Notes under the pieces: model-generated
The model's input: the letters and a program-made list of their open reading frames with translations, nothing else
What the model was told of the DNA's origin: nothing
Databases searched by the model: none
Made by a program: the position numbers and the translations under genes
Assembly: GCA_015492295.1 (NCBI GenBank)
Contig: WGFI01000094.1
Location: 8,560-72,559, forward strand
Source: a candidate division WOR-3 bacterium
GTDB taxonomy: Bacteria > Hydrothermota > Hydrothermia > LBFQ01
Reading direction: 5' to 3'
DNA: 64,000 nt
Part shown: positions 2,279 through 58,420 of the stretch, in pieces
Position numbering within the stretch: position 1 is the stretch's first letter
How the letters are laid out: every line of letters starts with the position of its first letter

Positions 2279-2330
2279 GTATTTTAAGGTGGTAAAATTT
2301 CTTTTGTCAAGTCAAAGTTTCAGGCTTAGA
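2279..2330. promoter_or_regulatory. Divergent promoter pair: CCTTAAAATAC (minus strand, S8 peptidase) and GCTTAGAATAT (plus strand, thiolase)
   Basis: On the minus strand CCTTAAAATAC ends 9 nt before the peptidase ATG. On the plus strand GCTTAGAATAT ends 10 nt before the thiolase ATG. No SD is present. Confidence 0.45.
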
Positions 2331-2340
2331 ATATCCCCTT

Positions 2341-3501
2341 ATGAAAATCGTTATAACGAATGCTTACAGATTGCCCGTTGGTAGCTTGGGAGGACAACTA
2401 TCCGATATGGAAACCTATGAACTTTTTATGGAAGTGGCGAAATATGTCCTTGAGAAATCCGGCATTGATAGGAATGTGGTGGATGGTGTAGTTGTTGGAA
2501 ACATAGGGCAACCTTCCGATGCTCCGAATGTTGCGAGGAAAATAGCGAGGGAACTCTTGGGTGATAACAAATGGGGTTTTGTGGTTCAAAGGAATTGCGC
2601 GTCGGGAATTCAAGCCATAACTACGGGTTATGAGATTATAAAGAACGGTGATGCGGATGTCCTTCTCGTTGGGGGGGTTGAAAGTATGTCAAAGGCCCCG
2701 TATATACTTAAAAAAGCAAGATGGGGATACAGACTTAGACATGATACACTTTACGATGGTCTTTGGGAAGGTTTGACGGATCCCATAGTTGATCAGCTCA
2801 TGGGTAGAACTGCTGAAAATTTGGTGGAAAAGTATAACCTCACCCGGGAGGAGATGGATCAGTTCGCCGTCAGTAGCCATCAAAAGGCGTACAAAGCCCA
2901 AAAAGAAGGCTTGTTCTCACCGAGAATAGCGCCTATTGAGAAGGATGGAGAAGTAATTGATAAGGATGAGGGAATAAATCCGAATTTAACTCTACAGATA
3001 GCCGCCCTTTATCCTCCGATATTTAAAGAGAATGGAACGGTAACACCCGCTTCAAGTTCATCAATAAACGATGGGGCCGCCGCCATGCTTCTTATGAGTG
3101 AGGAGAAATCCAAGGAATTGGGTATAAAGCCCGATGCTTACATAGTTTCTTACGCGTACGGTGCGGTTGATCCTGCTTATATGGGAGAGGGACCGACATG
3201 TTCAACACCGATAGCCCTACGAAAGGCGAATATGAAAATAACGGATATAGATTTCTTTGAGGTCAATGAGGCCTTCGCAGCCGTCGCCATAGTTGATAGA
3301 AATGTTCTGGGAATCCCTGATGAAAAGATGAATGTTTGGGGAGGTGCCATAGCCCACGGTCATCCCGTAGGAGCCACGGGGGCGATACTGACGGTTAAAA
3401 TGATAGGGATTTTGGAGACATACAAAGGAAAGAGGGGTTTGATAACTCTTTGCGTTGGGGGAGGGCAGGGGGGAACCCTCATAATTGAAAGGTACGAATA
3501 G
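2341..3501 (+). CDS. Acetyl-CoA C-acetyltransferase (thiolase II)
   Basis: 386 aa. The N-terminus carries the NCASG motif with the catalytic Cys region (VVQRNCASGIQAI). The C-terminus carries GHP (AIAHGHPVGATG) and CVGGGQG motifs. Length and motif order match thiolases. Confidence 0.85.
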   Translation: MKIVITNAYRLPVGSLGGQLSDMETYELFMEVAKYVLEKSGIDRNVVDGVVVGNIGQPSDAPNVARKIARELLGDNKWGFVVQRNCASGIQAITTGYEIIKNGDADVLLVGGVESMSKAPYILKKARWGYRLRHDTLYDGLWEGLTDPIVDQLMGRTAENLVEKYNLTREEMDQFAVSSHQKAYKAQKEGLFSPRIAPIEKDGEVIDKDEGINPNLTLQIAALYPPIFKENGTVTPASSSSINDGAAAMLLMSEEKSKELGIKPDAYIVSYAYGAVDPAYMGEGPTCSTPIALRKANMKITDIDFFEVNEAFAAVAIVDRNVLGIPDEKMNVWGGAIAHGHPVGATGAILTVKMIGILETYKGKRGLITLCVGGGQGGTLIIERYE

Positions 3502-4163
3502 TGTCAGATACACTTCTTGTGATAAACCTTTTAAGCTTGGGAGATTGGTGGGGGGCGTATCTGGAGTCTAAGAGGATAGGTTCAGATTACTATATGGCGA
3601 AATCTCTGATCTTAAAAGGCGATACTTCGGAAGCAATAATCCTACTTTCCGAGGACACAACTTGCAAAGCAAAGAGATTGAGGCTATCCTTGGTCTTATC
3701 AAAATTCCTCATGGAATCGGCCTATGATATATTAAAAGATAGCACCTGTTTTACGGAAGATGATAAAACCTTGACCGATGCCTATTTCCTGAATTTCAAT
3801 GAAGATGATCCTCTATCGGACAGTTTAAGGAAAAGACTTCCAAAACTTCTAAATCCTTCAACGGCGCTTATACTCAACATCATTCCCGGTCTCGGTATGG
3901 TGTATTCAGGAAAACCCTGGAACGGTATAAAGACTGTACTTGCAAACATCATCGGTATAGGAGGTATCGTGTATTCTATAAAGAAGAAGCATTATGTTGA
4001 TGCTGGTATATGGTATTTCTTTTGGGAGAATAGGTTTTATTTTGGCAGCTTTCAGAACACCTTGGAGTATGTATGGGAGGAAAACAGGAGAAGGCTTCGG
4101 CCGTATTTTGAATATATAAGGATGAGGATTGAAAAAGGAGGTTTATATGTACGAGATAGGTGA
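3501..4163 (+). CDS. Hypothetical membrane protein
   Basis: 220 aa ORF with a GTG start overlapping the thiolase stop by 1 nt (translational coupling). It has a hydrophobic segment (LILNIIPGLGMVYSG...IIGIGGIVYSI) and no recognisable family. Confidence 0.4.
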   Translation: MSDTLLVINLLSLGDWWGAYLESKRIGSDYYMAKSLILKGDTSEAIILLSEDTTCKAKRLRLSLVLSKFLMESAYDILKDSTCFTEDDKTLTDAYFLNFNEDDPLSDSLRKRLPKLLNPSTALILNIIPGLGMVYSGKPWNGIKTVLANIIGIGGIVYSIKKKHYVDAGIWYFFWENRFYFGSFQNTLEYVWEENRRRLRPYFEYIRMRIEKGGLYVRDR

Positions 4164-5940
4164 AATATTGCTTAGACTAAGCATACTATCTTCACTTTTC
4201 GGCTTGTTTCTCTCTTTCACCAAAAGGGTAAAGTTAATAGAAACTCTGGTATTAACTATGGTTTTATCCATAATATTGTCCAATGTTATCCTGCTTAAAG
4301 CCTTGCTAAGGAGCGACTTTTCCTTAGTGTATGTCATAAACTACACATCAAAGGATTTGCCCCTATTCTATAAATTCACGGCATGGTGGGGTGGTCAAGC
4401 GGGATCTCTGATGTTTTGGCTCTTCGTGTTATCCATATATACACTTTTCTTCACGGCAAAGATAAGGACCCCAAGCGTATATACCGTCGTATTCGCAACA
4501 TTTCTTTTCTTTTTGATAACAACCACCTATGCTGCGAACCCATTTGAGAGACTGCCTTTGAGCATGCCTGACGGTAGGGGTTTAAATCCCTTACTGCAAA
4601 ATGTATGGATGGCTATACATCCACCACTGCTCTACTTAGGATATGTGGGTACAACCTTTCCAGCCGCCCTATCATTTGAAGCTGCCTTAAAGGGTTTTGA
4701 CAACAATAGCATCAGCAGAACCCGATTCTGGCTTATGCTTTCATGGATTTTCCTAACTCTCGGAATACTCCTGGGAGGTAGATGGGCGTATTTGGAGCTC
4801 GGGTGGGGGGGATACTGGGCTTGGGACCCGGTTGAAAACGCTTCATTTCTCCCTTGGATAGTTTTAACGGCGGCAATACACACCTACCACTTGGTTAAAA
4901 TAGGTTCTCATAGGATGTGGTTCTTCAATCTGGCATTTGCAGGATACTTTCTTTCAATCCTTGGGACTTTTCTTACAAGGAGCGGAATAGTTGAATCCGT
5001 TCATGCTTTCGCATTTTCGGATATAGGACATTACTTTATAGCATACCTTTCCTTATGCCTTATAGTATGGATTTTTACAAACTTTAAGTTCATAGGGATC
5101 AGAAAGGTAAGAAACTACGAAATCTTCACGAGGGGTTGGTACCTGTCAATATCAAATTATCTTTGGATTGTACTGCTTTTCGCCGTGATCCTTGGCACTT
5201 TTTACCCCGTGATAACCGAACTTATAACGGGTGTTCAACTCACAACTTCAAAAAATTACTACACATATTCCACCGCGCCTATGTTCCTTGCAATAATCGT
5301 ATCGTCCATATTGGCGCTTGAAAGTAGGTGGGATAAAGCCATTTTTAAGATAAACAAGTTGCATTTTGGAATATCGCTTGTAGTATCTTTAATTTTCCTT
5401 CTTATAACTCGCAACATTTTCATTTTCATAGGTATTCTCGTTTCGCTTTATGGTACATTGGCACTCTTTAAATCTAAAAGCCCTTCTCATGTTGCTCACA
5501 TAGGATTACTCATAACATCCGCGGGTATAGTTTTAACTTGGAATCTTGGGAAGGGATACGAAATATCTTTTAAACCGGGAGAAACGAAGGATTTCTATGT
5601 TTTTAAGCTCACACATCTCGGCTGGGATGAGTATAAAGGAAAAAATTACGACGGTGTTTATGCCATAATGAATGTTAAAATCTTTAACAGAAATCTTGGA
5701 GATATAAAACCCGAAAGGAGGCTTTACAAACCTTCCGAAGAGGTAACATCCGAGGCCGGAATATTACCGATATTCCCCTTGGGAGATATATATGTCGTTA
5801 TTCAGGGTGCCGAAGACGATGGGAGATTTTACTATGAGGTATATTTTAATCCGGGGATACAGTTGGTATGGATAGGCCCGGTTATTATAGCATTGGCGGG
5901 ACTATGGAGTTTGCTCCGTAGGAAAGGTTTTCATCCTTAA
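4129..5940 (+). CDS. ccmF: Cytochrome c-type biogenesis heme lyase, CcmF/NrfE family
   Basis: 603 aa polytopic membrane protein. The N-terminal motif is FTAWWGGQAGSLMFW. The WWD domain RWAYLELGWGGYWAWDPVENASFLPWI matches the CcmF/NrfE signature (WGGxWFWDPVEN). Conserved His-containing loops follow. Confidence 0.7.
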   Translation: MKKEVYMYEIGEILLRLSILSSLFGLFLSFTKRVKLIETLVLTMVLSIILSNVILLKALLRSDFSLVYVINYTSKDLPLFYKFTAWWGGQAGSLMFWLFVLSIYTLFFTAKIRTPSVYTVVFATFLFFLITTTYAANPFERLPLSMPDGRGLNPLLQNVWMAIHPPLLYLGYVGTTFPAALSFEAALKGFDNNSISRTRFWLMLSWIFLTLGILLGGRWAYLELGWGGYWAWDPVENASFLPWIVLTAAIHTYHLVKIGSHRMWFFNLAFAGYFLSILGTFLTRSGIVESVHAFAFSDIGHYFIAYLSLCLIVWIFTNFKFIGIRKVRNYEIFTRGWYLSISNYLWIVLLFAVILGTFYPVITELITGVQLTTSKNYYTYSTAPMFLAIIVSSILALESRWDKAIFKINKLHFGISLVVSLIFLLITRNIFIFIGILVSLYGTLALFKSKSPSHVAHIGLLITSAGIVLTWNLGKGYEISFKPGETKDFYVFKLTHLGWDEYKGKNYDGVYAIMNVKIFNRNLGDIKPERRLYKPSEEVTSEAGILPIFPLGDIYVVIQGAEDDGRFYYEVYFNPGIQLVWIGPVIIALAGLWSLLRRKGFHP

Positions 5941-5951
5941 AATCCTTTATT

Positions 5952-7736: not shown

Positions 7737-7876
7737 TATAATCGCCCCTTGCTTTTGTAGTGGGTGGGGATTTAACGCAAAGGGATATTACGCTAGTGGG
7801 GAGACCTTCGGAGATGGTTCTTAGTTTTTAAGTGTAAGGGCAAGATGCAATTTTTACCTCCTTAAAATTCTGGTCT

Positions 7877-9529
7877 ATGTTGGGTAAGGAGGCTTTTCTG
7901 ATAAATCTTTATGTTTTAAACTTTTGGTCGGGCACCGAACCATCGTTGCCGTTGTTCAATATGATGTTCAACGATCCTAACAAGGTTTATAACCTCGCCA
8001 ACTCCATCGCTATGAAGTACAGAAAGGATACTTTAAGAGTCTTTCCTTCATGCGTTTTACTCGCGAAGCTATCCGGAAGCAATATAAGGGCGGGGCTCCT
8101 AAGTGATATATACAAAGAAACCGTAGCCGAGATAACGGGGGATAACCCCTTAGGCAAATTCATATTTGACAGGGAGAGAAAACTATCAAAAGGTTTGCGA
8201 GATTCCTTGCAAATGATACCGAACTATGTACCTACAAAGATAAACCGATTGACCACCGCCCTGCTCAAAGTGTATTTATCCGTAAATATGAAGGTTCCTC
8301 GCCGTCTGAACGCCTATATATGGGATAGCCTTTCACTCAAAGACAAGGAGGAATTTGAAAGGAGTTTCCTTGGGAAAACCGATAAAGAAAGGATTGCCTA
8401 TGCATTTCAGGTTATGTGCGTTCTTTTGGACTCTTTGAGAAGCGTGGTGAATAGATATGGAAGTTCTATGAAGAGCTTCTATCTGAGAACGCCTTATGGA
8501 TATATATCCTTCGGTTCAAAGGACAAGGATAGCTTCCCAAACTCAATAATAGTGATAGATCCAGGAGGGGATGATATTTACGGTGATGTGCGCTTAGGTT
8601 TGGACCTGTCGGGAAACGATATTTACAAGGGAGATGTTGGTTTTGGCTTCTTCGGTATAGGTGGATTCGTAGATGAGGAGGGTAACGATGTCTATAAGGG
8701 TAGCTATATAGGAGCAGGATTCTTGGGATTTGGATTGTTATATGATTTACGAGGAAACGATATATACAAGTGCAAGGTGTTCTGTTTGGGGGCGGGATAC
8801 ATGGGTGGAGGTATGGTTGTCGATAAGGAGGGAAACGACACATATTATGCAATATCAAAGTCTCAGGGTTTTGGATGGGTTGGAGGTGTAGGTATATTGG
8901 TTGATGTTGAAGGGAACGATAATTACGAACTTGAAGATTCGGTTTTGTACTTCCCATCACCACAGAGTCCGAAACATAACACGAGCTTAGGACAAGGTAT
9001 GGGATACGGTGAAAGGAGGGATTTTTATAACGGTAGATCTCTCGGCGGAGGTTTAGGTATCCTCGTTGATGTGAAAGGGGATGATAGATACTATTCAAGC
9101 GTTTTTTCGCAGGGATCCGGGTATTGGTTGGGTGTGGGAGTTCTATATGATGGGGATGGGAACGATGCGTATTCGGGTGTGTGGTATTCCCAAGGGGCGG
9201 CCGCGCATTTTGGAATAGGCGCCTTGTACGACCTTAGGGGGAACGATGTCTATTTATCCCTTCTATCAACCTCGCAAGGTGTGGGACATGATTTTTCTTA
9301 TGGTATTCTCATTGATTTTAATGGTAAGGACACATATACATGTGGGAACCTTTGCCTCGGAAGTGGAAACGCTCAAGGTGTGGGAATATTTTGGGATTTC
9401 GGTGGAGAAATGCGCACAAACCTTAAAGGTAAAGGTCTAGGTGTTGAAAACCCCGCGGTGGATAAAACGAGTTTCAGGTACTCTTTCCCCACGAAAGGTT
9501 TTGTTTGTAAAGGGAAGGCCTGCCCATAA
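7877..9529 (+). CDS. Hypothetical repeat protein (predicted beta-solenoid with about 14 GND-x-Y glycine-rich turns)
   Basis: 550 aa. Residues about 1-230 are non-repetitive. From about residue 230 a roughly 22-aa periodic unit recurs: GxGxxGxGxLxDxxGNDxYxG. Motifs seen are GDDIYGD, GNDIYKG, GNDVYKG, GNDIYKC, GNDTYYA, GNDNYEL, GDDRYYS, GNDAYSG, GNDVYLS and GKDTYTC. No family is recognised from memory. Confidence 0.55.
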   Translation: MLGKEAFLINLYVLNFWSGTEPSLPLFNMMFNDPNKVYNLANSIAMKYRKDTLRVFPSCVLLAKLSGSNIRAGLLSDIYKETVAEITGDNPLGKFIFDRERKLSKGLRDSLQMIPNYVPTKINRLTTALLKVYLSVNMKVPRRLNAYIWDSLSLKDKEEFERSFLGKTDKERIAYAFQVMCVLLDSLRSVVNRYGSSMKSFYLRTPYGYISFGSKDKDSFPNSIIVIDPGGDDIYGDVRLGLDLSGNDIYKGDVGFGFFGIGGFVDEEGNDVYKGSYIGAGFLGFGLLYDLRGNDIYKCKVFCLGAGYMGGGMVVDKEGNDTYYAISKSQGFGWVGGVGILVDVEGNDNYELEDSVLYFPSPQSPKHNTSLGQGMGYGERRDFYNGRSLGGGLGILVDVKGDDRYYSSVFSQGSGYWLGVGVLYDGDGNDAYSGVWYSQGAAAHFGIGALYDLRGNDVYLSLLSTSQGVGHDFSYGILIDFNGKDTYTCGNLCLGSGNAQGVGIFWDFGGEMRTNLKGKGLGVENPAVDKTSFRYSFPTKGFVCKGKACP

Positions 9530-9531
9530 TC

Positions 9532-10827
9532 ATGTATATATGCTCGGTATGCGGTTATAAATCTTTAAAATTCATGGGGAGATGTCCCGAATGCAACGAA
9601 TGGGGAACGATGATTGAGGAGGATAGGAAAAAGGGAAAAAAGTTTGAATCTCTGGAAATTTCCAAGCTTTCCGATGTTGAGGGATACGATAAGGAAAGGT
9701 TGAGTACGGGTATATCCGAGGTTGATAGAGTTTTAGGCGGTGGAATACTCAAAGGCAGCGTTATACTCCTCGGGGGAAGTCCTGGTGTTGGGAAATCAAC
9801 GCTATTCCTACAAATCGCCGGAAAACTTAGGGATCAAGGTCATAATGTTCTCTTAGTATCCTCCGAAGAATCCGTTATGCAGGTGAAGCAGAGAGCGGAT
9901 AGGTTAAAGGTAAATCAGGATATAGATATAACCGATGAAGAAAACTTAGACAAGATTCTCCACAGTTTATCCAAAGATTACGATGTAATATTCTTTGATT
10001 CCATACAGTCGCTATATATGGAGAACCTGAACTCTCCCGCAGGATCAATATCCCAAGTTAGATTCTGTGCAGATAGGATATTCAGATTCGCAAAGGAGAG
10101 AGATATTTCAGTTTGGATCTCGGGTCATATAACGAAGTCAGGTATTATAGCAGGTCCTAAGACCTTGGAACATATAGTGGATGTCGTCATGTATTTGGAA
10201 GGGGACAAAGTTTCTTCTTTGAGAACGCTGAGATGCGAAAAGAACAGGTTCGGCCCCGTGGATGAAATCGCTTTCCTTACGATGAATGAGGATGGACTTA
10301 GACCCATAAATGACCCATCCTACTATTTTGTTTCACCTTCAAAGATCCCAAAAGTCGGTGTAGCATATACGGTTATAACCAAAGGGAGTCTTCCAGTAGT
10401 TATAGAAGTTCAAACCTTGGTGCATCCGACCTTCTATCCCATGCCCCTGAGATATTCCGTAGGTTATGATCAGAAGAAACTGGCCATAATACTCGCTTTA
10501 TTGGAGAAGAAGCTGGGTTATAGGTTGGCCAGGATGGACATATACCTGAATCTCAGCGGAAATTTAAAGTCGGAGGATCCATCAATGGACATGGCCGTAT
10601 GTGCATCTTTAATATCTTCTATCAGAAATATACCTTTGGACAATTCGGGAGTCTTCATAGGGGAGATTTCATTGACCGGGGAATTTAAAAAACCTTTAAA
10701 TTTCAATATACTTGAAGGTGAGGCCAAAAGGGTGGGTTTCAAGAGGATGTATTCCCCCACACCATCGGAACATCTGGATTGGATAAAGATAGAGGATCTA
10801 ATGGAATTAGCGAATTTATTGAGGTAA
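9532..10827 (+). CDS. radA: DNA repair protein RadA (Sms)
   Basis: 431 aa. An N-terminal C4 zinc ribbon (CSVCGYKSLKFMGRCPECNEW) is followed by Walker A GGSPGVGKST, the KNRFG motif and a C-terminal Lon-protease-like domain. The ATG is 3 nt after the upstream stop. Confidence 0.9.
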   Translation: MYICSVCGYKSLKFMGRCPECNEWGTMIEEDRKKGKKFESLEISKLSDVEGYDKERLSTGISEVDRVLGGGILKGSVILLGGSPGVGKSTLFLQIAGKLRDQGHNVLLVSSEESVMQVKQRADRLKVNQDIDITDEENLDKILHSLSKDYDVIFFDSIQSLYMENLNSPAGSISQVRFCADRIFRFAKERDISVWISGHITKSGIIAGPKTLEHIVDVVMYLEGDKVSSLRTLRCEKNRFGPVDEIAFLTMNEDGLRPINDPSYYFVSPSKIPKVGVAYTVITKGSLPVVIEVQTLVHPTFYPMPLRYSVGYDQKKLAIILALLEKKLGYRLARMDIYLNLSGNLKSEDPSMDMAVCASLISSIRNIPLDNSGVFIGEISLTGEFKKPLNFNILEGEAKRVGFKRMYSPTPSEHLDWIKIEDLMELANLLR

Positions 10828-14584: not shown

Positions 14585-14771
14585 AAGATTTATATTTTAA
14601 GGTTGTCCGTTATCGCCTTATTACTTTGTAGCGGCCCATATACATCACTGGGAAGACCACAACGAGATCCTTATCCTATCCTCGTAAGCCGTTCCAGAGG
14701 CTTCTCTATAAATCATTCCATTTCCACAAAAACATTTTGCCAGAATTCTTACAACCTTAGAATATCAAACT

Positions 14772-17413: not shown

Positions 17414-17425
17414 AAAATGGGTATT

Positions 17426-18331
17426 CTAAGGATGTAAATACACCCATAGAATGACGATTATCCAAAGGGAATAACCCAGAACAACATAAAATAAATTTCC
17501 GCTTAGTATGTAAATCCCCGATAAAATCGCCGACAGTACATTTAAAATAAAAATCAGGGCAAGACCCAACCTATCACCGAGAAGATCACATATCTTATGA
17601 TGTATATGCTCCTCGTCCCTCTCAAACAAGTTTTTCCTTGAATATAACCTTCTCAAAAGCGTAATATTCGTATCGGCGAATGGGAAGAAAAGCACAAGAA
17701 GCATAGACTCAAAAGGCAAATAGGATAACCTCAAAAAGGCGAAACTTATAAGAAATCCTAACAAATATGAACCGGCATCACCCATTATGATTTTTGCCTT
17801 CGGAGAATTATAAAACAAAAGACCTATGGAAATGGCCGATAACATAAGATAAAAGTGTTCTTTGGTTAGTACATATATAAAAAGCAAGGAAACTATGCTC
17901 GTTGTGAGAAGCACCCCATCCTTCCCGTCTATGACATTAAAAGCGTTTGTAAAACCGAGTATAAATACCAACCAGAATATTTCATTGAATATGGGTATAT
18001 AGAACTCGTGGTTTAATAAGTTTATCGGTAATCCATAACCGAATGTGCTTATTATAATCACGCTTATGATGAAGGTTATTAGAAGCTTTATCTTTCCGCT
18101 CAGACCTTTAATATCGTCGTATATACCCATGAGGGAAATCACAGATACCGATAATGTCAATAACCATGAAAATTCCTTTAAAAGGAAATTCCATAAAACC
18201 ACAGGTAAAAGGAGAATGCCTGCACCCCTTATCTTTGAGGAATATACATCCTTAAAAATCTCCGTATTTTCAAAGACCTTCCAAAATAAATATCCACCCA
18301 AAATCCCATACAATATGAAAATAAAGGACAT
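17426..18331 (-). CDS. Glycosyltransferase family 4 (MraY/WecA-like UDP-HexNAc:polyprenol-P HexNAc-1-P transferase)
   Basis: 301 aa polytopic protein. It carries the NAFNVIDGKDG (NxxNxxDGxDGL) and MGDAGSYLLGF (DxGS) motifs characteristic of the MraY/WecA family. Confidence 0.7.
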   Translation of the reverse strand: MSFIFILYGILGGYLFWKVFENTEIFKDVYSSKIRGAGILLLPVVLWNFLLKEFSWLLTLSVSVISLMGIYDDIKGLSGKIKLLITFIISVIIISTFGYGLPINLLNHEFYIPIFNEIFWLVFILGFTNAFNVIDGKDGVLLTTSIVSLLFIYVLTKEHFYLMLSAISIGLLFYNSPKAKIIMGDAGSYLLGFLISFAFLRLSYLPFESMLLVLFFPFADTNITLLRRLYSRKNLFERDEEHIHHKICDLLGDRLGLALIFILNVLSAILSGIYILSGNLFYVVLGYSLWIIVILWVYLHP

Positions 18332-19578: not shown

Positions 19579-19605
19579 AAGCAGTTAGTATAAAGGGGAA
19601 AAACT

Positions 19606-24295: not shown

Positions 24296-24308
24296 CTTAT
24301 ACCTCCTT

Positions 24309-40749: not shown

Positions 40750-40795
40750 AAAACCCCTCTTGCAGAATTAAGAAAACAGCCTTAGAATATTAGCG

Positions 40796-41574: not shown

Positions 41575-42200
41575 CTAACACCTTTCCAAAATCAACTCAA
41601 TAGCCAGCGTTATTGCAAGAAAGATATCCCTTAAGGGGTTGATAAAAGACTTTTCCGAGCGTACAACACTTATAGGAACGAAATCCACCCTGAAACCTTT
41701 CCACAACGCCTTAACCAAAAGCTCAGACTCCATATCGTACCTATTCCTTGACAGTTCCAATTCTTCCAAAACCCTCCTCCTTATTACTCTGTATCCGCTT
41801 TGACTATCCTCCAACCTGCATCCCGTCATTATGGATATGAAGGTCGTAGTTATTCTGTTTGACAGTATCCTCATAAAACCCATATCCTTCATTCTCCTTC
41901 TGCGGGATCCTATGACTATGTCATTGTTTCTTATCTTTTTCAGAAAATCCTTAAAATGCTCCGCTTTATGCTGCCCATCCGCATCAACCGTAGCGAATAT
42001 AGTGTAATCCCTCCTAATTCCCCACTTAAAACCCTCCTTTAAAGCGAAACCCTTCCCCCTATTCGTCGGTAATCTTATACAATTGACACCGAACCTCTTA
42101 CATAACTCCCCCACATCGCACCCCGAACCATCATCCACGACCAATATATCAAAACCGAACTTCCCCCATTCCCTTAAAACATCTTCAAGTTCTGGAAGGC
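41575..42200 (-). CDS. Glycosyltransferase family 2 (Dpm1/polyprenol-phosphate glycosyltransferase-like); start codon unclear
   Basis: The listed ORF (41575..42144) begins MVVDDGSG from a TTG. The frame is open upstream and encodes ...KILIIIPCYNCLPELEDVLREWGKFGFDILVVDDGSG, the classic GT2 N-terminus. No ATG, GTG or TTG start lies before the in-frame stop at about 42260, so a CTG/ATT start or a sequencing error is likely. DAD and a QxxGYR-like motif (SQSGYRVIRR) are present. Confidence 0.6.
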
Positions 42201-42221: not shown

Positions 42222-42644
42222 TCAGAATTTTTTCTGGATTTCCTCCCAGGTGGTTATTGTATGGTAGAAAACCTTATCCCCATCATGAACTCCTCGTATC
42301 ACCTCAGTAATATGAACATGGGTCGCCCCAAACTCCTTGACCGCATATTCAACCGCATGCTCCGGCAAAGCATTATCTCCGCAGGTGTATATATCTATGG
42401 CTGCGTACCCAACCTCAGGCCAGGTGTGTATGGATATGTGAGACTCAGCTATAACTATAACTCCACTGACACCCGAAGGAGGAAACCTATGGAAGGATAT
42501 CGTCCAGATGGTTACCCTCGCCTTCTCGGCGGCCTTGGTGAGTATATCCTGAACCTTTTGTATGTTTCCAATTATCTCGGGGTTGCACCCCGAAGCCTCC
42601 ACTATATAATGCTCCCCCACCGTGGTATGCACCAATTCCTTCAA
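42222..42644 (-). CDS. speH: S-adenosylmethionine decarboxylase proenzyme (class 1b, SpeH)
   Basis: The protein reads LKELVHTTVGEHYIVEASGCN...VIAESHISIHTWPEVGYAAIDIYTCG, with the ES|S self-processing site and TWPE motif. The true start is the TTG at 42642-42644, 7 nt after the SD AAGGAGGT. The listed ORF start (42728) reads through tRNA-Leu and is an artefact. Confidence 0.8.
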   Translation of the reverse strand: MKELVHTTVGEHYIVEASGCNPEIIGNIQKVQDILTKAAEKARVTIWTISFHRFPPSGVSGVIVIAESHISIHTWPEVGYAAIDIYTCGDNALPEHAVEYAVKEFGATHVHITEVIRGVHDGDKVFYHTITTWEEIQKKF

Positions 42645-42687: not shown

Positions 42688-42771
42688 TGCCGGGGGCGGG
42701 ACTTGAACCCGCACGGGCCAAAGCCCACTAGGTCCTGAACCTAGCGCGTCTGCCAATTCCGCCACCCCGGC
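42688..42771 (-). tRNA. tRNA-Leu (anticodon CAG), type II with long variable arm
   Basis: The reverse complement is GCCGGGGTGGCGGAATTGGCAGACGCGCTAGGTTCAGGACCTAGTGGGCTTTGGCCCGTGCGGGTTCAAGTCCCGCCCCCGGCA. It has a perfect 7-bp acceptor stem, anticodon loop TTCAGGA, a variable stem-loop GGGC-TTTG-GCCC and T-loop TTCAAGT. CCA is not encoded. Confidence 0.85.
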
Positions 42772-42778: not shown

Positions 42779-42789
42779 ATATTTTAAGG
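42779..42789 (-). promoter_or_regulatory. CCTTAAAATAT promoter-like element, 7 nt upstream of the mature tRNA-Leu 5' end
   Basis: This is the same motif as upstream of the CDS starts. The spacing places the TSS at about the tRNA +1. Confidence 0.45.
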
Positions 42790-43015
42790 TTGATATACTT
42801 TTAAAACACCAAAACATTTCACCCTTATAATACCCAGTAAAGGAGGTATAACCATGGAGAAAAGGGAAGACAGAAGAGTTCCAAGATTAACGGAAAGGAA
42901 GCCTTATGAAAAGCCGGCCATACTGGGTAGGTCAAGCAGTAAGGGTGGAAACATACTCATAACCTACCCATAATCGGGGGGTCGGTGGCGTTGTAGTTGT
43001 AATTTTTAGTGAATT

Positions 43016-44086
43016 TTGAGAAGAAGGCTTTATTTTGTTGATTGGTTAAAGGGTTTGTTCGTTATATGGATGGTTCCCACCCATGCCTTTGACGGTCTGT
43101 TTCCAAATGTTCTGAAATCCACAGAACTGTACTCCTCAATCGCATTTTTCAACGGTTTGGTTGCACCTGCATTCTTAGTATCGTCGGGATTTTTGGCGTT
43201 ATACACATTCAATGAGACGAAATTTTTCCCGAGATTGAGAAGGGGCATTGAGCTTATGGCATTTGGATACGCCACCCAATTGCCTTTCAAGTCCCTTTTC
43301 AAGACACTGGAACATGTTTATCTTTACGCAATAGGAAACGCGCCTGAATATTTTGAGAGATCTTTAAGAATATTTCAGAGGGTTGAGATTTTAATATGCA
43401 TAGGTTCGGGTGCCATTGCCATAACCTTGGTTTTGAGATTTATAAAAAGGAATGAATATAGGTTTGTAATGTTTCTTTTCTTGGCGTTTCTCTTTTGGTT
43501 TTTAACGCCTCTTATGAACGATGTTGGAAAGAATTTACCCATGTTTATAAAGCCTTATTTTACCTTTGAGGGTTCTCTATTCCCTATATTCCCATATTGG
43601 GGATATATGTTCTTTGGAAGCGCCTTATCAGCAGCTTACCTTATGAATAAAAAACTCTTCCTATTAACCACATTGATTCCCCTTTCCTTCGTTTTCCTAA
43701 ATGTATTTTGTCATTTCTCTCGGGATGAGACCTTTTTGCCATACATACTTCTGAAAATCGGAGTCCTTATTATTATCATCTATGTTTTAAAGTACGCCGA
43801 GGCTGTGGGATTTAGATTCAAACCAATAGCAATTCTCGGTAGAAACTCCCTTTTATCCTATGCTTTTCACAATACGATCGTATATGGAAGTCCATTCACA
43901 AAACCGTTGAGATATTACTACGGTTATCAATCCTGGGAAGGTGGCTTGATCCTGGGCGGTTTAACCTTATTATTAACCGTGGTGTTTATAATATCCTGGG
44001 ATAGACTTAGGCATAGATACGGTAGTCTCCCAGCCAGACGATTCTGGATTCTCGTATCTCTGATATTCTTACTTTCCCCGTTCTGA
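43016..44086 (+). CDS. Polytopic membrane protein (DUF1624/acyltransferase-3-like; HGSNAT-type N-terminus)
   Basis: 356 aa with a TTG start. The N-terminal YFVDWLKGLFVIWMVPTHAF resembles the DxxRG/DWLKG start of the DUF1624/acyltransferase-3 families. About 9 TM helices are predicted. Confidence 0.4.
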   Translation: MRRRLYFVDWLKGLFVIWMVPTHAFDGLFPNVLKSTELYSSIAFFNGLVAPAFLVSSGFLALYTFNETKFFPRLRRGIELMAFGYATQLPFKSLFKTLEHVYLYAIGNAPEYFERSLRIFQRVEILICIGSGAIAITLVLRFIKRNEYRFVMFLFLAFLFWFLTPLMNDVGKNLPMFIKPYFTFEGSLFPIFPYWGYMFFGSALSAAYLMNKKLFLLTTLIPLSFVFLNVFCHFSRDETFLPYILLKIGVLIIIIYVLKYAEAVGFRFKPIAILGRNSLLSYAFHNTIVYGSPFTKPLRYYYGYQSWEGGLILGGLTLLLTVVFIISWDRLRHRYGSLPARRFWILVSLIFLLSPF

Positions 44087-44108
44087 TTACCACCATAAAA
44101 TACCCACT

Positions 44109-45977: not shown

Positions 45978-46011
45978 AAGTTGTATATTTTACAGGTGTA
46001 TAATTACAAAT

Positions 46012-46410: not shown

Positions 46411-46432
46411 TAAGTAGATTTTCATCCGTAGA

Positions 46433-47200
46433 ATGATGTGTTTTATGGAGGTTAAAATAGAAGTTAAAGGTTTGAATTTCTATTACGGTCAAAAGCAGGT
46501 TCTTTACAATATAAGCTTGCCCATATACAAGAATAAGATAACCGCGATAATAGGTCCTTCCGGTTGTGGAAAAACAACTTTCATAAGGGTACTGAATAGG
46601 ATGTACGAAACCGTTGAGGGAGCCAGAGCGGAAGGGGAGGTCATTCTTGATGGTGAAAACATTCTAAACAAGGATTACGATTTGATAAAGCTCAGATCCA
46701 AGGTTGGTATGGTATTCCAAAAGCCCAATCCCTTCCCGAAGTCCATATACGAAAATGTAGCTTTCGGTTTGAAGATAAGGGGGATTAGGAACAAGGATTT
46801 AATATACGAAAAGGTGAAGGATGCTCTTATAAAAGCCGCTTTATGGGATGAAGTGAAGGATAGGTTGAACGAAAACGCCTACTCCTTATCTGGGGGGCAG
46901 CAGCAGAGGTTATGCATAGCGAGGGCATTGGCGGTAAATCCTGAGGTATTACTGTTTGATGAGCCTACGAGTGCGATAGATCCGGTTGGAACGGCTAAGA
47001 TTGAAAGCCTTATGAAAGAGCTCTCAAAGAGCATTACGATAGTTCTGGTTACGCATGGTATGCATCAGGCTGCGAGAGTTTCCGATTTTACCGCATTTTT
47101 CCACAGCGGAAAACTCATAGAGTTTGCCCCCACACCTGAGCTCTTTGTAAAACCCAAAGAAAAATTGACGGAGGATTATATAACGGGTAAGTTTGGATAG
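46433..47200 (+). CDS. pstB: Phosphate ABC transporter ATP-binding protein PstB (orphan)
   Basis: 255 aa. Motifs are Walker [10 protein letters not shown], the PstB-specific [22 protein letters not shown], the signature LSGGQQQRL and Walker B LLFDEP. The true start is probably the ATG at 46445 (MEVKIEV). No pstSCA or phoU is adjacent. Confidence 0.8.
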
Positions 47201-48971
47201 AATGACGGATGTTTGCAAGGACATTGAGAGAAACCTTAAAGGTGGAAACGATATATTTATACTGATACCTCATTTTGCCGATGTTAGCGAAATTGAAAGA
47301 TGCATATACTCCTTAAAGGTTTATATGGTTGATCTAAACAATATAAAAAGGCCGTTTCTGTTGTTCGGACGGATTCCTCTGGTTTTTATCAAGGATATTT
47401 CCAAACTTAACTCCGCGCATCCCATTCTGGAAGCGAAGAAGAGGAATATAAGGATAATCTGCATGGTTTATGAAGGTTTGCAGTACAAAAGGATCTACTC
47501 CTTACTTAGGGAAATGAACCTTTCCATAGAGGACATATTCTCCAAGTTCATAAGGATAAGATTATCGGAAGATAGACTCCTAACATCCAAGGTGCAGAGC
47601 GATTTCTCAAAACTTGAAAGTACGGAGAAACAAACCCTAAGGTACATATACATTTTAAACAGCGTAAATATATATCCTACAATTGAAATCCTTGAATCTA
47701 TGCTCAACAGAGATCTGGATGAGGAAATATCCACTTTAAAGCTCTTAGAATTCGTTGAAGTGAGGGAGAGCAGAATATTTGGGAAAATGGACTATTTGGA
47801 ATATATATTTGGCGAGATTTCACCCGACAGAAGTTTCTGCGAGAATGTTTTAATGTATCTGTCCCCTTATGACAGGATTTCCTTGATCAAATACATGCTT
47901 GATAACGATGTACATCTTGATCTGTGCGAATCAACGATCATGGATCTACTCAAAACACTTTCACCTATCAGGGAACCGAAGTTATACGCCGATGCGCTGT
48001 ATATCTTGGGAAAAGTTAGATTGAAAATGTCTTACAAAGTCCCTATGAATCCTTCTAAGGTCCTCGCGCCTGCTAGGGAGGCTGCGGATATATATCTGCG
48101 TATAAAGGATAAGGAAGGATATGTAGATTCACTCAACCTTATGGGAGTTGCGTTTTTAAATCTGGCTCGGGATCAGGATACGATAAACTATCTTAAAAAA
48201 TCGCTCAATGTATTCCACAGGTTGGTGGATGAAACTGAGGGTATAGATAAAGGTATAGCCCTATCAAACCTTGGAATAGCGTATTTTAGGCTGGCGGAGG
48301 TTCTGGAAGATATAATCTATGCTTTGGAGGGGGAAAGGAGCCTATCGGAGGCTTTGAAGATATTTCACGATTACGGATTAAATGTTAGGATAAGGAACAC
48401 CTTGGTGAATTTGGGGGCTATTTACGATTTTATGGGTTCAAATCTCCAAAATGCGGACTTCGTTAAGAATGCTATAACCAACTATAAAAAAGCGCTGAGC
48501 ATGACGAAGAAAGATGAAATAACGATCAGAAACATCATAAGAAATAATCTCGCTTTATGTCTATCCACGCTTGGGAAGTTGGAAGGTGATGAGGATTACT
48601 TTCAGGAGTCGATTAGATTTTTAAATGAAGCTTTATCAGATACGGAGGGTATGGAGCAAACCATTATGATATACCATAACCTATCGTCAATATACTCAGC
48701 TTGGTATGATATTTCAAGAGATAGGGAACATTTACTCAAAGCGAAGGAGTTCATGGAAAAGATTCTAAAAATTCAGGAATCTCGCAGACTCAAAGCGAAA
48801 TATTGTCATATACTAGTTGAACTCGCGGAGATATACGAGAAGCTGGGTATGTTTGATAAGGAAAGGAGGATATTAGGCGAGGCATTTGAATTGGCCAAAT
48901 CCTATAACATACAGAACCTGATATACAAAATAAACTCCATGATGGAGAAGATAAAAGGCATAAATCATTGA
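47193..48971 (+). CDS. Hypothetical protein with C-terminal TPR-like repeats
   Basis: 592 aa with start TTG 47193 or ATG 47202. The N-terminal roughly 250 aa have no recognisable family. The C-terminal half has many helical-repeat units ([25 protein letters not shown]..., [14 protein letters not shown]..., [12 protein letters not shown]...). Confidence 0.45.
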
Positions 48972-48992
48972 CACCCTTATAATATTCAACTT

Positions 48993-52688: not shown

Positions 52689-52846
52689 GTGTAATAGATG
52701 CATGGAAGTGGGAAGAACGTAATGGGATATGAATGTCTGAAGTATTCAGCGAACAAGAGTATTTATAGTTATGTGGGTATAAGTACTTCTTCGCATTCAT
52801 GGTGCCCGTAGGGTGGTAGATTATACCGCCTTAGAATATAAACTCG

Positions 52847-55872: not shown

Positions 55873-56614
55873 ACCTTAAAGATTTCTCTATCAACCTTCT
55901 AAGGTTGGACAAAGTTAAATTAAAGTAAGCTTCGCCTCTATTAAAGAAAGTTATGGTGCCTTTTTCCTCAGATATAACGATGGCCACAGCGTCCGTAACC
56001 TCCGTTATTCCAGCTCCCGCTCTATGTCTCGCCCCTATTCCCCTATATCTGACACTCATTGGAACCATAACCGAAGCAGCGACTATCCTGTCGTTCTTTA
56101 TTATCACGGCACCATCGTGCAAAGGAGATTTTTTATCAAATATTGATATGAGTAAAGGGGCGGAAAGTTTAGCATCAAGTATAATACCCGTATCCTCCGC
56201 GAGTTCATCTAAGGAAATCCTACGCTCTATAACTATAAGCGCCCCAAGCCTCCTGCGAAGTAGCTCCTCAATGGCGCCTATTATATCATCTATGGGTACC
56301 CTCTCTTCGGGTACAAAGAATCTTATGAACGGGGTTGAACCTATCTGCATAAGTATCCTCCTGATCTCGGGCTGAAAGACTATTATAAGTATCACCACTC
56401 CAAAGGTTTTTATCGTTGATACCAATAAGCTTATTGATGGCAATTGCAACATCTGACCGAGAAAACCTATGAAGAATAAGAGTCCCATGCTCATAATGAG
56501 TATAAGTATCTTCGTTCCTGTAAGGACGCGCAGAATTATGTATATAAATACACTCATCAGAAAAACATCTATCACATCAAATATGGATACAGGTATAAAC
56601 CCGAAAATTTTCAC
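55856..56614 (-). CDS. cdaA: Diadenylate cyclase CdaA (c-di-AMP synthase)
   Basis: 252 aa. It has three N-terminal TM helices followed by a DAC domain: PLHDGAVIIKNDRIVAASVMVPMS...GARHRAGAGITEVTDAVAIVISEEKGTITFF (DGA and RHRAA-GITE motifs). Confidence 0.85.
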   Translation of the reverse strand: MKIFGFIPVSIFDVIDVFLMSVFIYIILRVLTGTKILILIMSMGLLFFIGFLGQMLQLPSISLLVSTIKTFGVVILIIVFQPEIRRILMQIGSTPFIRFFVPEERVPIDDIIGAIEELLRRRLGALIVIERRISLDELAEDTGIILDAKLSAPLLISIFDKKSPLHDGAVIIKNDRIVAASVMVPMSVRYRGIGARHRAGAGITEVTDAVAIVISEEKGTITFFNRGEAYFNLTLSNLRRLIEKSLRYESLS

Positions 56615-58293
56615 TTATCCTTGAACGGCTTAAACTTGCTTTCCTCTTCTTCCTTCAACACCCTACGCAAGGCTTTTCCTATCACCGTTCTCGGTAGCTC
56701 TTTTCTAAATTCCACCTCAGAGGGTACTTTGTAGGGGGCGAGGTTTTCTTTACAATAGTTGATTATTTCATCCACACTTGCACTTTCGCCCTCTTTAAGA
56801 ACCACATACGCCTTCACGATTTCTCCCTTAATGGGATGCTCTATACCTACGACTATCGCATCCTTCACCTTGGGATGCTTAATTAAAACCTCTTCAACCT
56901 CACGAGGATATACATTGAATCCACCTACTATAATCATCTCCTTTTTCCTATCCACTATGTAAAAATACCCATCATTATCCATATACGCTATATCCCCCGT
57001 ATAAAGCCATCCATCCCTTAAAACTTTGGAAGTTTCATCCGGCCTTTTCCAATAACCTTTCATGACCTGAGGGCCTTTAACGATCAGCTCACCCGGCTCA
57101 CCTATGGGCATCTCCTTTTCGCCTTTCTCTATATCAACGATTTTCGCATCCGTATCTGGGAAAGGCAATCCTATACTTCCGGGCTTGTTTAAACCATATA
57201 TTGGATTGCAGTGGGTGACGGGTGATGCTTCTGAAAGTCCATAACCTTCAACCAGCTTACCGCCCGTAAGTCTTTCAAAGTCTTCTTTGATCTTTAAGGG
57301 TAAAGGTGCAGCCCCCGATATGCATGCTTTTATGGATCTCAAATTGTACTTTGATACCTTAGGATGGTTGGATATAGTGGCGTATATCTGAGGAACTCCC
57401 GGAAGAAGGGTTATTTTATGTTTTTCTATGAGCTTTAAGGCATCTTCGGTGTGATATTTGGGCATAAGAACCATCTTTGCTCCTATTTTCACCGAGAAGT
57501 TCAAACCCACGGTCATGCCATAGCTGTGAAAGAAGGGAATTATACACAGGGTGGCCTCGCTTCCAGGTTCAAGCTGCGTGAACCATGAGACGGATTGGTA
57601 GGTATTGGCGAGTATGTTAAAGTGAGTCAGCATCACACCCTTGGGTGTTCCTGTGGTTCCACCTGTATATTGTAGCACGGCTAAGTCTTCGGAGGGATTT
57701 ATATCAACCTCCTTGAAATCCGAAGAATACTTCATAAACTCCGAAAAACGATGTATATGTTCATCATCAAAAGGAACCGGCTTGGGTTTGGGTTTGGCCA
57801 CCAAAGGATACAAAAAACCCTTTACAAATGGAAGGAAGTCGGGTACCTTCCCTACCACATATTTTCTGACCTTAACCTTATCTTTCACCTTATCCACGGT
57901 GTCCCAAAAGATATCAAGCGTTATGAGGATCTTCGTCTCAGAATCGTTCAACATGAATTCCAACTCATTGGGGGTATAAAGGGGATTCAGTTGGACGATA
58001 ACGCCGCCGGCCATCAAAGTGGCATAGTACGATATTATATAGTGAGGTACATTAGGCAGCATTATCCCTACCTTATCACCCTTTTCCAGACCTAGGGCTC
58101 TTAAAAAGTTGCTGAATTGGCAAGAAAACTCAAAGAGTTGCCTGTAATCGCACTGCCACCCTTCAAACCATATAGCCGTATTACTCGGATAGCTCTTCGC
58201 CGTTTCTTCAAGGATCTTCCAAAGGGGCTTCTCTGGATAGTCTATGCTCCTCGGAACACCCCTTTCATAATGCGAATACCAAACTCTCTCCAT
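56611..58293 (-). CDS. Long-chain-fatty-acid--CoA ligase (AMP-binding enzyme)
   Basis: 560 aa. Motifs are the AMP-binding motif YTGGTTGTPKGVMLTH, GYGLSE, YTGD and the C-terminal GKALRR lysine motif. Confidence 0.85.
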   Translation of the reverse strand: MERVWYSHYERGVPRSIDYPEKPLWKILEETAKSYPSNTAIWFEGWQCDYRQLFEFSCQFSNFLRALGLEKGDKVGIMLPNVPHYIISYYATLMAGGVIVQLNPLYTPNELEFMLNDSETKILITLDIFWDTVDKVKDKVKVRKYVVGKVPDFLPFVKGFLYPLVAKPKPKPVPFDDEHIHRFSEFMKYSSDFKEVDINPSEDLAVLQYTGGTTGTPKGVMLTHFNILANTYQSVSWFTQLEPGSEATLCIIPFFHSYGMTVGLNFSVKIGAKMVLMPKYHTEDALKLIEKHKITLLPGVPQIYATISNHPKVSKYNLRSIKACISGAAPLPLKIKEDFERLTGGKLVEGYGLSEASPVTHCNPIYGLNKPGSIGLPFPDTDAKIVDIEKGEKEMPIGEPGELIVKGPQVMKGYWKRPDETSKVLRDGWLYTGDIAYMDNDGYFYIVDRKKEMIIVGGFNVYPREVEEVLIKHPKVKDAIVVGIEHPIKGEIVKAYVVLKEGESASVDEIINYCKENLAPYKVPSEVEFRKELPRTVIGKALRRVLKEEEESKFKPFKDK

Positions 58294-58295
58294 AA

Positions 58296-58369
58296 CGCGT
58301 CCGGCGGGACTTGAACCCGCGACCTTCGGCTCCGGAGGCCGACGCTCTATCCTGCTGAGCTACGGACGC
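58296..58369 (-). tRNA. tRNA-Arg (anticodon CCG)
   Basis: The reverse complement is GCGTCCGTAGCTCAGCAGGATAGAGCGTCGGCCTCCGGAGCCGAAGGTCGCGGGTTCAAGTCCCGCCGGACGCG, 74 nt. It has a perfect 7-bp acceptor stem, anticodon loop CTCCGGA and T-loop TTCAAGT. Confidence 0.85.
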
Positions 58370-58420
58370 TTTAAGGTTGATATTATACCGCGGAAAAATT
58401 TCTGCGATAGAATTAACGCT

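Follow-up and report, generated by a model that had tools for sequence, protein, structure and literature searches.

How are transcription and translation started at genes that carry a −10-like hexamer, and no Shine-Dalgarno (SD) site, directly before the start codon? This question is raised by a 64,000-nt stretch of contig WGFI01000094.1 from a hot-spring bacterium of candidate division WOR-3 (the whole stretch analysed, hereafter the window), in which an element with a TAnAAT core recurs a few nucleotides upstream of start codons. The element is most probably a housekeeping promoter, whose σ70-type −10 hexamer lies so near the start codon that the mRNA would have no leader or almost none. 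A −10 promoter with no or nearly no leader had already been proposed in an earlier note on this DNA, and every sequence-level test described below was found to favour that proposal.

By protein similarity, the window belongs to a Caldipriscus-like member of the candidate phylum WOR-3, its IleS being 66–84% identical to proteins of metagenome-assembled genomes (MAGs) that bear the name candidate division WOR-3 or Candidatus Caldipriscus, the latter a thermophilic lineage known from Yellowstone streamer communities (PMC4791363, PMC11696919). The window has a GC content of 38–46% and contains approximately 58 genes, named by Pfam except for ileS, which was named via its relatives; the names thiolase, S8 peptidase, Rieske, dapB and ileS given in the earlier note proved correct. 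The only Rfam matches in the window were two tRNA genes, with no further family and neither a riboswitch nor a T-box before ileS. The set of relatives comprised 11 ileS loci with 150 open reading frames (ORFs) in 132 kb of 41–62% GC, and further relatives, including one WOR-3 genome of 27% GC, were represented by independent public gene calls. The negative control consisted of 80 unrelated metagenome contigs (945 kb, 1134 ORFs) from a metagenome scan seeded with an acyl-CoA synthetase (ACS) protein, whose matches had at most 53% identity and belonged to other taxa. From the window and the relatives, 63 non-redundant start-adjacent sites were pooled, and the hexamer TAnAAT is numbered −12 to −7 throughout.

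Position and anatomy of the element

The sequence CCTTADAAT was found 18 times in the window, against 4.6 ± 2.0 expected, and none of 100 dinucleotide shuffles reached 18. A TAnAAT hexamer ending 6–11 nt before the start codon was present at 21 of the 67 long ORFs of the window, with a mode of 7–9 nt (2, 6, 6, 5, 1 and 1 ORFs at 6, 7, 8, 9, 10 and 11 nt from the hexamer end to the first start codon), and at none of the 67 did such a hexamer end 0–5 or 12–21 nt before the start. This was the sole peak in the window, none being observed at 20–30 nt upstream of starts, the distance of the archaeal TATA box. Among the control contigs, a hexamer so placed preceded only 11 of the 1134 ORFs (1%; Fisher p = 1e-20), and a C at −18, present at 20 of the 21 window hexamers, accompanied none of these 11. 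Additionally, an unbiased count of the 6-mers in the 30 nt upstream of 58 genes ranked TAGAAT, TTAGAA, CTTAGA, CCTTAG and TATAAT first (p = 1e-10 to 5e-6), with GGAGGT/AGGAGG next, and a position weight matrix built from the relatives only retrieved 33 sites in the window versus 8.2 in shuffles, of which 24 were start-adjacent and 2 preceded tRNA genes. Shuffles, position, 6-mer count and outside control thus agree that the recurrent TAnAAT-core element near start codons, as first noticed, is real. The motif precedes 21 of the 56 listed genes, and approximately 26 of 58 after the start corrections discussed below, which is about four genes in ten.

Most individual sites were recovered exactly where they had been reported, at 5935, 14755, 26145, 33328, 35283, 35909, 40780, 44093, 48975 and 52829 and, on the minus strand, at 2281–2289 and 42781–42789. 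Two others had been misplaced by 3–4 nt (7856 is 7860, and 2320 is approximately 2323), and the thiolase site at approximately 2323 reads GGCTTAGAAT and not the CCT ascribed to it. The candidate promoter blocks of the window are listed below with their distance to the start codon, or to the first nucleotide (G1) of a tRNA.

2281–2296 (−): block tttaccacctTAAAAT, 11 nt to ATG 2269 of an S8 peptidase that extends past the window edge
2317–2332 (+): block gtttcaggctTAGAAT, 8 nt to ATG 2341 of the thiolase
5928–5943 (+): ttttcatcctTAAAAT, 8 nt to ATG 5952 of an S15 peptidase
7853–7868 (+): tttacctcctTAAAAT, 8 nt to ATG 7877
14594–14609 (−): block CCTTAAAAT, 9 nt to ATG 14584 of a DUF5618 protein of 107 aa (the 14261 gene of the earlier note)
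14748–14763 (+): cttacaacctTAGAAT, 8 nt to ATG 14772 of an MBL-fold hydrolase
17423–17438 (−): tttacatcctTAGAAT, 9 nt to ATG 17413 of a CarboxypepD_reg protein
19587–19602 (−): ttttccccttTATACT, with a weaker hexamer, 8 nt to ATG 19578
26064–26079 (−): ttttccgtagTATAAT, 10 nt to ATG 26053 of Rieske, first gene of the Rieske/cytochrome b/cytochrome c operon
26138–26153 (+): taaaccgcctTAGAAT, 8 nt to ATG 26162 of ileS
29624–29639 (−): TATAAT block, 7 nt to ATG 29616 of dapB
29649–29664 (+): ttttcctcttTATAAT, a candidate promoter with leader, approximately 115 nt upstream of ATG 29787 of the SD-led ThaI endonuclease
32533–32548 (+): ttttcaagtgTATAAT, 7 nt to ATG 32556 of an enoyl-CoA hydratase
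33321–33336 (+): ttctcaacctTATAAT, 11 nt to ATG 33348 of a DUF6754 gene
35276–35291 (+): ctttcggcctTAGAAT, 6 nt to ATG 35298 of a coiled-coil protein
35902–35917 (+): ctttcagcctTAGAAT, 6 nt to ATG 35924 of the paralogous coiled-coil gene
37592–37607 (−): tgttcatcggTATAAT, 6 nt to ATG 37585 of a solute-binding-protein gene
37690–37705 (+): atatcaccatTATAAT, 9 nt to ATG 37715
39199–39214 (+): TATAAT without C-18, 8 nt to ATG 39223 of an FG-GAP protein
40773–40788 (+): aaaacagcctTAGAAT, 7 nt to TTG 40796 of a TPR protein
42781–42796 (−): atatcaacctTAAAAT, 9 nt to G1 (42771) of tRNA-Leu
42816–42831 (+): atttcaccctTATAAT, followed by a leader of approximately 15 nt with AAGGAGG and by ATG 42854 of a small ORF
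44086–44101 (+): attaccaccaTAAAAT, 7 nt to ATG 44109 of a PmbA/TldD gene
45987–46002 (−): tatacacctgTAAAAT, 9 nt to ATG 45977 of a CsgG-like gene
45989–46004 (+): tttacaggtgTATAAT, 7 nt to ATG 46012
46419–46434 (+): ttttcatccgTAGAAT, 10 nt to ATG 46445 of an ABC ATPase gene
48968–48983 (+): ttgacaccctTATAAT, 9 nt to ATG 48993
52822–52837 (+): tataccgcctTAGAAT, 9 nt to GTG 52847 of an ABC permease
58382–58397 (−): ttttccgcggTATAAT, 12 nt to G1 (58369) of tRNA-Arg(CCG)
58398–58413 (+): atttctgcgaTAGAAT, 7 nt to ATG 58421 of the NAD-dependent DNA ligase

The hexamer itself has invariant T-12, A-11 and T-7, and the conservation continues upstream of it. In 23 window sites, T at −22 to −20 and A/T at −19 are followed by C-18 (21/23), A-17, C-15 (18/23), C-14 (14/23) and T-13 (16/23), the region from −22 to −13 adding approximately 6 bits of information; downstream of the hexamer, A/T at −6 gives way to a C/T-rich run in which a T almost always precedes the start codon. 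C-18 and C-15 mark 20 and 17 of the 21 start-adjacent hexamers, against 28% and 20% of the 231 other TAnAAT hexamers of the window. C-18 was also found in 34 of 36 sites of the relatives and in 56 of the 63 pooled sites. In the pooled set, the start codon is preceded by a pyrimidine at 53 sites and is ATG at 52, and the spacer contains 34% purine. The base at −13 tracks the hexamer, T-13 being found with the weaker TAGAAT/TAAAAT and G-13 with the perfect TATAAT (p = 0.02), which looks like compensation between hexamer and extension. No conservation was detected in the flanks outside −22 to +1, and no dyad symmetry within the block.

A −35 hexamer was not detected at these sites, since the best TTGACA match at 15–19 bp spacing scored 2.75/6 versus 2.90/6 at control hexamers, and a scan for consensus promoters with two hexamers remained at chance (45 vs 48.3 ± 6.9). 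TG at −15/−14 is present in only 5 of the 63 pooled sites, where CCT, CGG and CCG dominate. It had been rightly remarked that the CCT upstream of the −10 is not a feature of textbook σ70 promoters, and the non-textbook part was found to reach C-18 and the T-rich positions −22 to −20. The TTwCA at −22 to −17 was considered as a displaced −35 element and rejected, because its 4-bp spacer is at odds with what σ70 can span and the distance of the block from the −10 does not vary; a σ54-like promoter or one of a phage or single-subunit RNA polymerase was rejected for want of a sequence match. At a lone 5S rRNA gene in one locus (L007, 13880–14040, minus strand), a perfect TTGACA is separated by a 17-nt spacer from a weak ATTATT that lies 11 nt before the 5S 5′ end. 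Where the −10 is poor, as in this 5S case, a −35-type promoter may still be in use.

Some of the blocks listed above have particular settings. At 5938–5940 (+), before the S15 peptidase, the hexamer opens with a TAA that also serves the preceding CcmF-like gene as stop codon, and at 17426–17428 (−), before the CarboxypepD_reg protein, it opens with a TAG that does the same for the preceding glycosyltransferase gene; this sharing is an extreme packing of promoter and coding sequence. Between 45977 and 46012, two divergent candidate promoters fit into a 34-nt intergenic region, with their −10 hexamers almost adjacent on opposite strands. The tandem coiled-coil paralogues at 35276–36448 (+), of 199 and 174 aa, have near-identical promoters and first codons (ccctttc[g/a]gccttagaatacggatATGAG[G/A]CAAAGCACAGCT), which indicates that the gene was duplicated along with its promoter.

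Gene order, Shine-Dalgarno sites and tRNA genes

A promoter and a translation signal should differ in the genes they precede, and in this respect gene order was informative. Among the 32 genes whose upstream gap is 11 nt or more, 20 have the motif, and none of the 22 genes with a gap of at most 10 nt or an overlap has it (p = 1e-6); these coupled or overlapping genes have either GGAGG or nothing upstream. An SD match of at least 5 nt was observed at 0 of the 21 motif genes versus 8 of the 35 other genes, which bears out the previous statement that no SD site separates the motif from the start codon. Of the eight SD-led genes, six lie inside operons, namely those for cytochromes b and c, RadC, an ABC ATPase, a glycine-rich protein and a product of unknown function, and the only SD-led first genes are the ThaI endonuclease and one hexapeptide-transferase gene. 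Both arrangements are found in the respiratory operon, in which TATAAT lies 10 nt before the Rieske ATG and the downstream cytochrome b and cytochrome c genes both have GGAGGT.

The earlier note had contrasted the motif genes with SD-led restriction-modification (R-M) and secreted-protein genes. The R-M genes are indeed the ThaI endonuclease and an N6/N4 methylase by Pfam, and the endonuclease is SD-led; however, operon position explains SD use better than a grouping as R-M or secreted. The SD site as a mark of horizontally acquired genes was likewise rejected as the main explanation: the SD-led genes are mostly operon-internal core genes, so that horizontal origin is unneeded to explain SD use, although the R-M pair itself may have been acquired horizontally.

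The tRNA genes provide a separate line of evidence. The hexamer ends 9 nt before G1 of tRNA-Leu, which agrees with the 7 nt previously given for the end of the 11-mer, and 12 nt before G1 of tRNA-Arg. In the relatives, it was found 10–12 nt before three further tRNAs, and it preceded none of the six tRNAs of the control contigs. Since the motif precedes tRNA genes, it is not a translation signal. Every tRNA of the lineage that was examined (5 different ones and 3 tRNA-Arg orthologues) has TAnAAT 9–13 nt before its mature 5′ end. This variable distance would imply tRNA 5′ leaders of approximately 0–5 nt, and RNase P is likely to be needed at these short leaders; rnpB, the RNase P RNA gene, was not found by Rfam in the 64-kb window and the 132 kb of relatives, a sequence too short for inference on absence. 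In addition, two SD-led genes have the same block further upstream, at approximately 15 nt (42816) and approximately 115 nt (29649). The SD sites, tRNA genes and tRNA promoters concerned are the following.

25552–25557 (−): GGAGGT SD site of cytochrome b, ATG 25544, overlapping the Rieske stop codon; operon-internal
24301–24306 (−): GGAGGT SD site of cytochrome c, ATG 24295; operon-internal
42688–42771 (−): tRNA-Leu-CAG
42222–42644 (−): ORF with SD aaaggagg and TTG 42644, 43 nt after tRNA-Leu
58296–58369 (−): tRNA-Arg-CCG
Relatives' candidate tRNA promoters: L001 ~8549–8554, L002 ~4295–4300, L009 ~4930–4935 and L096–L099 ~9895–9915

The ORF after tRNA-Leu looks, by its sequence, like an AdoMet decarboxylase, and it lies in the 540-nt region between tRNA-Leu and a family-2 glycosyltransferase ORF (41575–42144, minus strand). 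The latter has a TTG start and matches its Pfam profile only from position 32, and an N-terminal truncation or frameshift may have occurred.

These observations bear directly on two readings in which the element is not a promoter. In one, the motif would be a non-SD translation signal within the mRNA, like the A/T-rich 'group B' motif of Bacteroidetes, and transcription would come from elsewhere. The motif does occupy the usual place of a ribosome-binding site, closely spaced same-strand genes can each have one, and WOR-3 is usually placed near the Fibrobacteres–Chlorobi–Bacteroidetes group, whose members are often without SD sites. However, a group-B motif would also precede internal genes, which this motif never did in the window, and it would be expected neither 9–12 nt before tRNA genes nor at the two blocks placed well upstream of genes with their own GGAGG. 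The fit of the hexamer to TATAAT with its invariant positions, and a rigid extension to −22 that falls outside the region bound by the ribosome, point the same way, and a translation signal is considered very improbable. The other reading, that the motif is a transcription-factor site of one regulon, or a dispersed repeat or mobile element that came to lie near starts by accident, could draw on the length and rigidity of the approximately 16-nt block with its highly conserved positions, and on the copies at 35276 and 35902 that stem from tandem gene duplication. It is hardly credible given the unrelated housekeeping, respiratory, secreted-protein and tRNA genes that are served (ileS, ligA, dapB, Rieske, thiolase and peptidases among them), the lack of both dyad symmetry and conserved flanks, and the presence of the motif in relatives of widely differing GC content, as detailed below.

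Start codons, leader length and tRNA junctions

The promoter reading can be stated as a sequence of steps. The element would be a rigid block of approximately 16–21 bp, formed by a near-consensus TAnAAT, the upstream extension, a C/T-rich discriminator and a pyrimidine-to-purine step at the start codon. The extension (T-rich −22 to −20, C-18, C-15, C-14 and T-13) would be lineage-specific and replace the missing −35 hexamer, being recognised by σ factor and RNA polymerase, presumably, by analogy with other promoters, by σ region 3 and neighbouring parts of the polymerase. A σ70 gene was not found in the window or the relatives by tblastn with an approximate query for E. coli RpoD region 2. RNA polymerase is predicted to initiate at the A of the ATG or within 0–3 nt of it, so that the mRNA would have no SD site and would depend on leaderless translation. 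A start-adjacent promoter would serve no gene but the first of a transcription unit, most units being very short, with the downstream genes relying on GGAGG sites or on overlap-coupled translation, and the same promoter would drive tRNA genes, with 5′ leaders of about 0–5 nt, and a few genes with leaders.

This model depends on the start codons being correct. Pfam domains open at residues 1–8 of the thiolase, DapB, the enoyl-CoA hydratase and the MBL hydrolase, which leaves no space for a downstream start and indicates that these start codons are genuine N-termini. In two genes, a full promoter block points to an in-frame ATG further in as the probable true start: 37585 in the solute-binding-protein gene, 28 codons into the longest ORF (36455–37669), and 46445 in the ABC ATPase gene, 4 codons into its longest ORF. 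Public gene calls for the genome of the window may have different starts: the exact products of ORFs 2341–3501 (+), the thiolase, and 62320–63531 (−), FtsX-like, were without a record in the public gene-call collection, in which the ACS gene of the same contig was present.

With regard to the transcription start, in 47 of 69 promoters the earliest pyrimidine-purine step within positions 6–10 after the hexamer falls on the initial base of the start codon. A start at this step would give leaders of 0 nt in these 47, 1–3 nt in 14 and 4–6 nt in 5. Leaders of 0–4 nt are indistinguishable by sequence, and leaders of 1–4 nt could be present at some genes. This is the ground of a third alternative, in which the promoters are real and the leaders very short, with 5′ untranslated regions of 2–5 nt and transcription starting at a purine approximately 5–6 nt after the hexamer or just before the ATG. 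In fact, the spacing mode of 7–9 nt exceeds the 6–7 nt of Thermus pTT27 and Deinococcus, the fifth base after the hexamer, where an alternative start would be possible, is a purine in 19 of 23 window sites, and 19 of the 69 promoters have an additional purine before the start codon within positions 6–10. However, bacterial RNA polymerase, according to E. coli studies, starts 6–10 nt from the −10, so that position 5 is too close, and the fifth-position purine is not kept in the high-GC relatives. The T before the ATG and the purine-poor spacer favour the A of the ATG as the start in 47 of 69 cases, and since there is no space for an SD site either way, translation would still be of the leaderless type. 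Such short leaders are therefore judged an unlikely general rule.

Several other observations weigh against the model. The spacing is 1–2 nt longer than in Thermus, Deinococcus and Mycobacterium (6–7 or 6–8 nt), leaders of 1–4 nt lower leaderless translation in E. coli, and 6 of the 63 pooled sites have a TTG start, at which leaderless initiation is poor in model organisms. In two close relatives, the Caldipriscus MAGs represented by L003 and L011, TATAAT lies 1 nt from the ileS ATG, an arrangement at odds with the model. Additionally, many motif genes follow a gene on the same strand at a distance of just 11–46 nt, and no enrichment of terminator-like hairpins was seen (19 vs 18.6), so read-through transcripts in which motif ORFs are internal and SD-less probably also exist. 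As to the longer spacing, C-rich discriminators move the E. coli start site 1–2 nt downstream, which would fit a start at the ATG.

A different arrangement was observed at the ACS gene (56611–58293, minus strand), which has neither a −10 hexamer nor an SD site before its ATG and directly follows tRNA-Arg. In alignment, its first residues (MERVWYSHYE...) coincide with the canonical N-terminus of long-chain acyl-CoA synthetases, which indicates that ATG 58293 is the true start.

58291–58296 (−): junction of the tRNA-Arg discriminator G 58296, tt, and ATG 58293 of ACS
Relatives' junctions: L096, L097, L098 and L099, 9923–10003; L100, 22–102

In the relatives, the junction (3 nt) is kept at 78–84% identity in five loci, which represent three distinct genomes, and it was also met, beyond these five, in a duplicate contig of the window's own genome; the upstream neighbours of tRNA-Arg/ACS in the relatives differ from those in the window. 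A distant WOR-3 orthologue of ACS (L101/L102, ~9980–10003) has no tRNA before it and instead shows TATAAT, 7 nt and ATG. A comparable junction was found in L001 (8203–8536, minus strand), where tRNA-Gln(TTG) is followed after 1 nt by the TTG start of an 86-aa ORF and then by a second ORF; by sequence, these ORFs look gatC-like and folE-like, respectively. The tRNA-Gln would thus be paired with gatC, a subunit of the amidotransferase that acts on tRNA-Gln. The tRNA genes of the lineage lack an encoded CCA, and endonucleolytic 3′ processing could therefore release an mRNA starting 1–3 nt before the start codon. It is tentatively suggested that 5′ ends at the start codon might arise by two routes, one through the −35-less extended promoter and the other through cleavage that separates the mRNA from the 3′ end of a tRNA transcribed with it, as at ACS and gatC. 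A literature search for tRNA punctuation in bacteria found the idea for mitochondria only.

Distribution in WOR-3 and comparison with known systems

The layout is not confined to the window. At ileS, a −10 hexamer lies 7–8 nt before the ATG in 9 of the 11 relatives' loci, and within these loci the hexamer was found at 34 of the 150 ORFs, 32 of them with C-18. Overall, the motif precedes approximately 23–31% of the long ORFs in WOR-3 genomes of 41–62% GC. The independent public gene calls showed this pattern in further relatives as well; in the WOR-3 genome of 27% GC among them, rpsP and secA are preceded by GCTTTAAAAT at 8–10 nt from the ATG, with C-15 kept and C-18 not. The same layout in relatives of 27–62% GC indicates that it characterises the phylum, or much of it, rather than this genome alone. 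Literature searches pairing WOR-3 with 'leaderless' found no report. One related WOR-3 MAG contig (L002, 183–686, minus strand) also carries a CRISPR array of 8 repeats matching Rfam CRISPR-DR2.

Previous studies have described comparable signals in other bacteria. TA-like boxes approximately 10 nt before starts mark leaderless, 'TA-led' genes in Actinobacteria, Deinococcus-Thermus and Aquificae (PMC3160421; Zheng et al. 2011), and were reportedly confirmed by differential RNA sequencing (dRNA-seq) in Deinococcus deserti and M. tuberculosis (PMC4007540, PMC3898074). GeneMarkS-2 models leaderless bacteria as group C, which is separated from group B by comparing first with internal genes (PMC6028130), and Deinococcus has the same two upstream signals, a −10 motif and GGAGG, studied functionally in D. 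radiodurans (PMC12340547). At the sequence level, the WOR-3 case matches the group C, TA-led leaderless architecture, apparently in a phylum for which it was unreported: a TAnnnT-type box lies a few nt before the starts of first genes, where no SD site is present, internal genes have SD sites, and approximately 30–40% of genes, of all functional classes, are affected. There are also differences. Known group C genomes with genetic code 11 are almost all of high GC content, whereas WOR-3 is of moderate to low GC (27–45% in several lineages); its hexamer is a full TAnAAT rather than TAnnnT, is preceded by the C-18/C-15 extension and is spaced by 7–9 nt and not 6–7, and its discriminator is C-rich, not G-rich. 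In contrast, the plasmid pTT27 of Thermus thermophilus, from a phylum with experimentally supported leaderless genes, shows a TAnnnT spacing mode of 6, a G-rich discriminator and neither C-18 nor C-15.

Comparisons outside group C were also made. Like the extended −10 promoter (TGnTATAAT), the WOR-3 element has conserved bases directly upstream of the −10 and no recognisable −35; unlike it, C-15, C-14, T-13, C-18 and the T-rich −22 to −20 take the place of TG, a combination for which no described equivalent was found. Archaeal leaderless genes (group D) likewise keep a constant spacing between promoter and start, and thermophiles are rich in leaderless mRNAs, but the archaeal TATA box and B recognition element (BRE) lie at approximately 26 nt, whereas the WOR-3 box lies at approximately 10 nt, is of the bacterial Pribnow type and precedes bacterial genes. 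Bacteroidetes signals (σA −33 TTTG/−7 TAnnTTTG, group B) share the departure from E. coli promoter and ribosome-binding rules; however, neither TAnnTTTG nor TTTG is found in WOR-3, which uses SD sites on internal genes and confines its motif to first genes and tRNAs. Finally, an ORF start abutting a tRNA 3′ end, as at tRNA-Arg/ACS and tRNA-Gln/gatC, recalls mitochondrial tRNA punctuation, and promoters unusually near tRNA 5′ ends recall the leaderless tRNA transcription of Nanoarchaeum equitans (PMC10941002). Unlike these systems, WOR-3 is a free-living bacterium with few known junctions of this kind and putative processing at them, and its promoter-tRNA distance varies between 9 and 13 nt.

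These findings have consequences for annotation, since gene finders and annotators that assume SD sites would misplace WOR-3 starts, as at 37585 and 46445, where corrections are probable. With a rule combining promoter and start, N-termini and operons could be mapped accurately in a phylum known almost solely from metagenomes. The extension and the C-rich discriminator also constitute a promoter model testable in the first cultured WOR-3 strain (PMC12285271) and of use for genetic tools. Whether bacteria produce leaderless mRNAs through the processing of tRNAs could be tested simply at the tRNA-start junctions and, if true, such tRNA-cut mRNAs would be a bacterial counterpart of mitochondrial tRNA punctuation. 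With leaderless translation as a predicted main route, a deep-branching thermophilic lineage of moderate to low GC content would join a short list, which bears on the question of whether leaderless initiation is ancestral or tied to thermophily.

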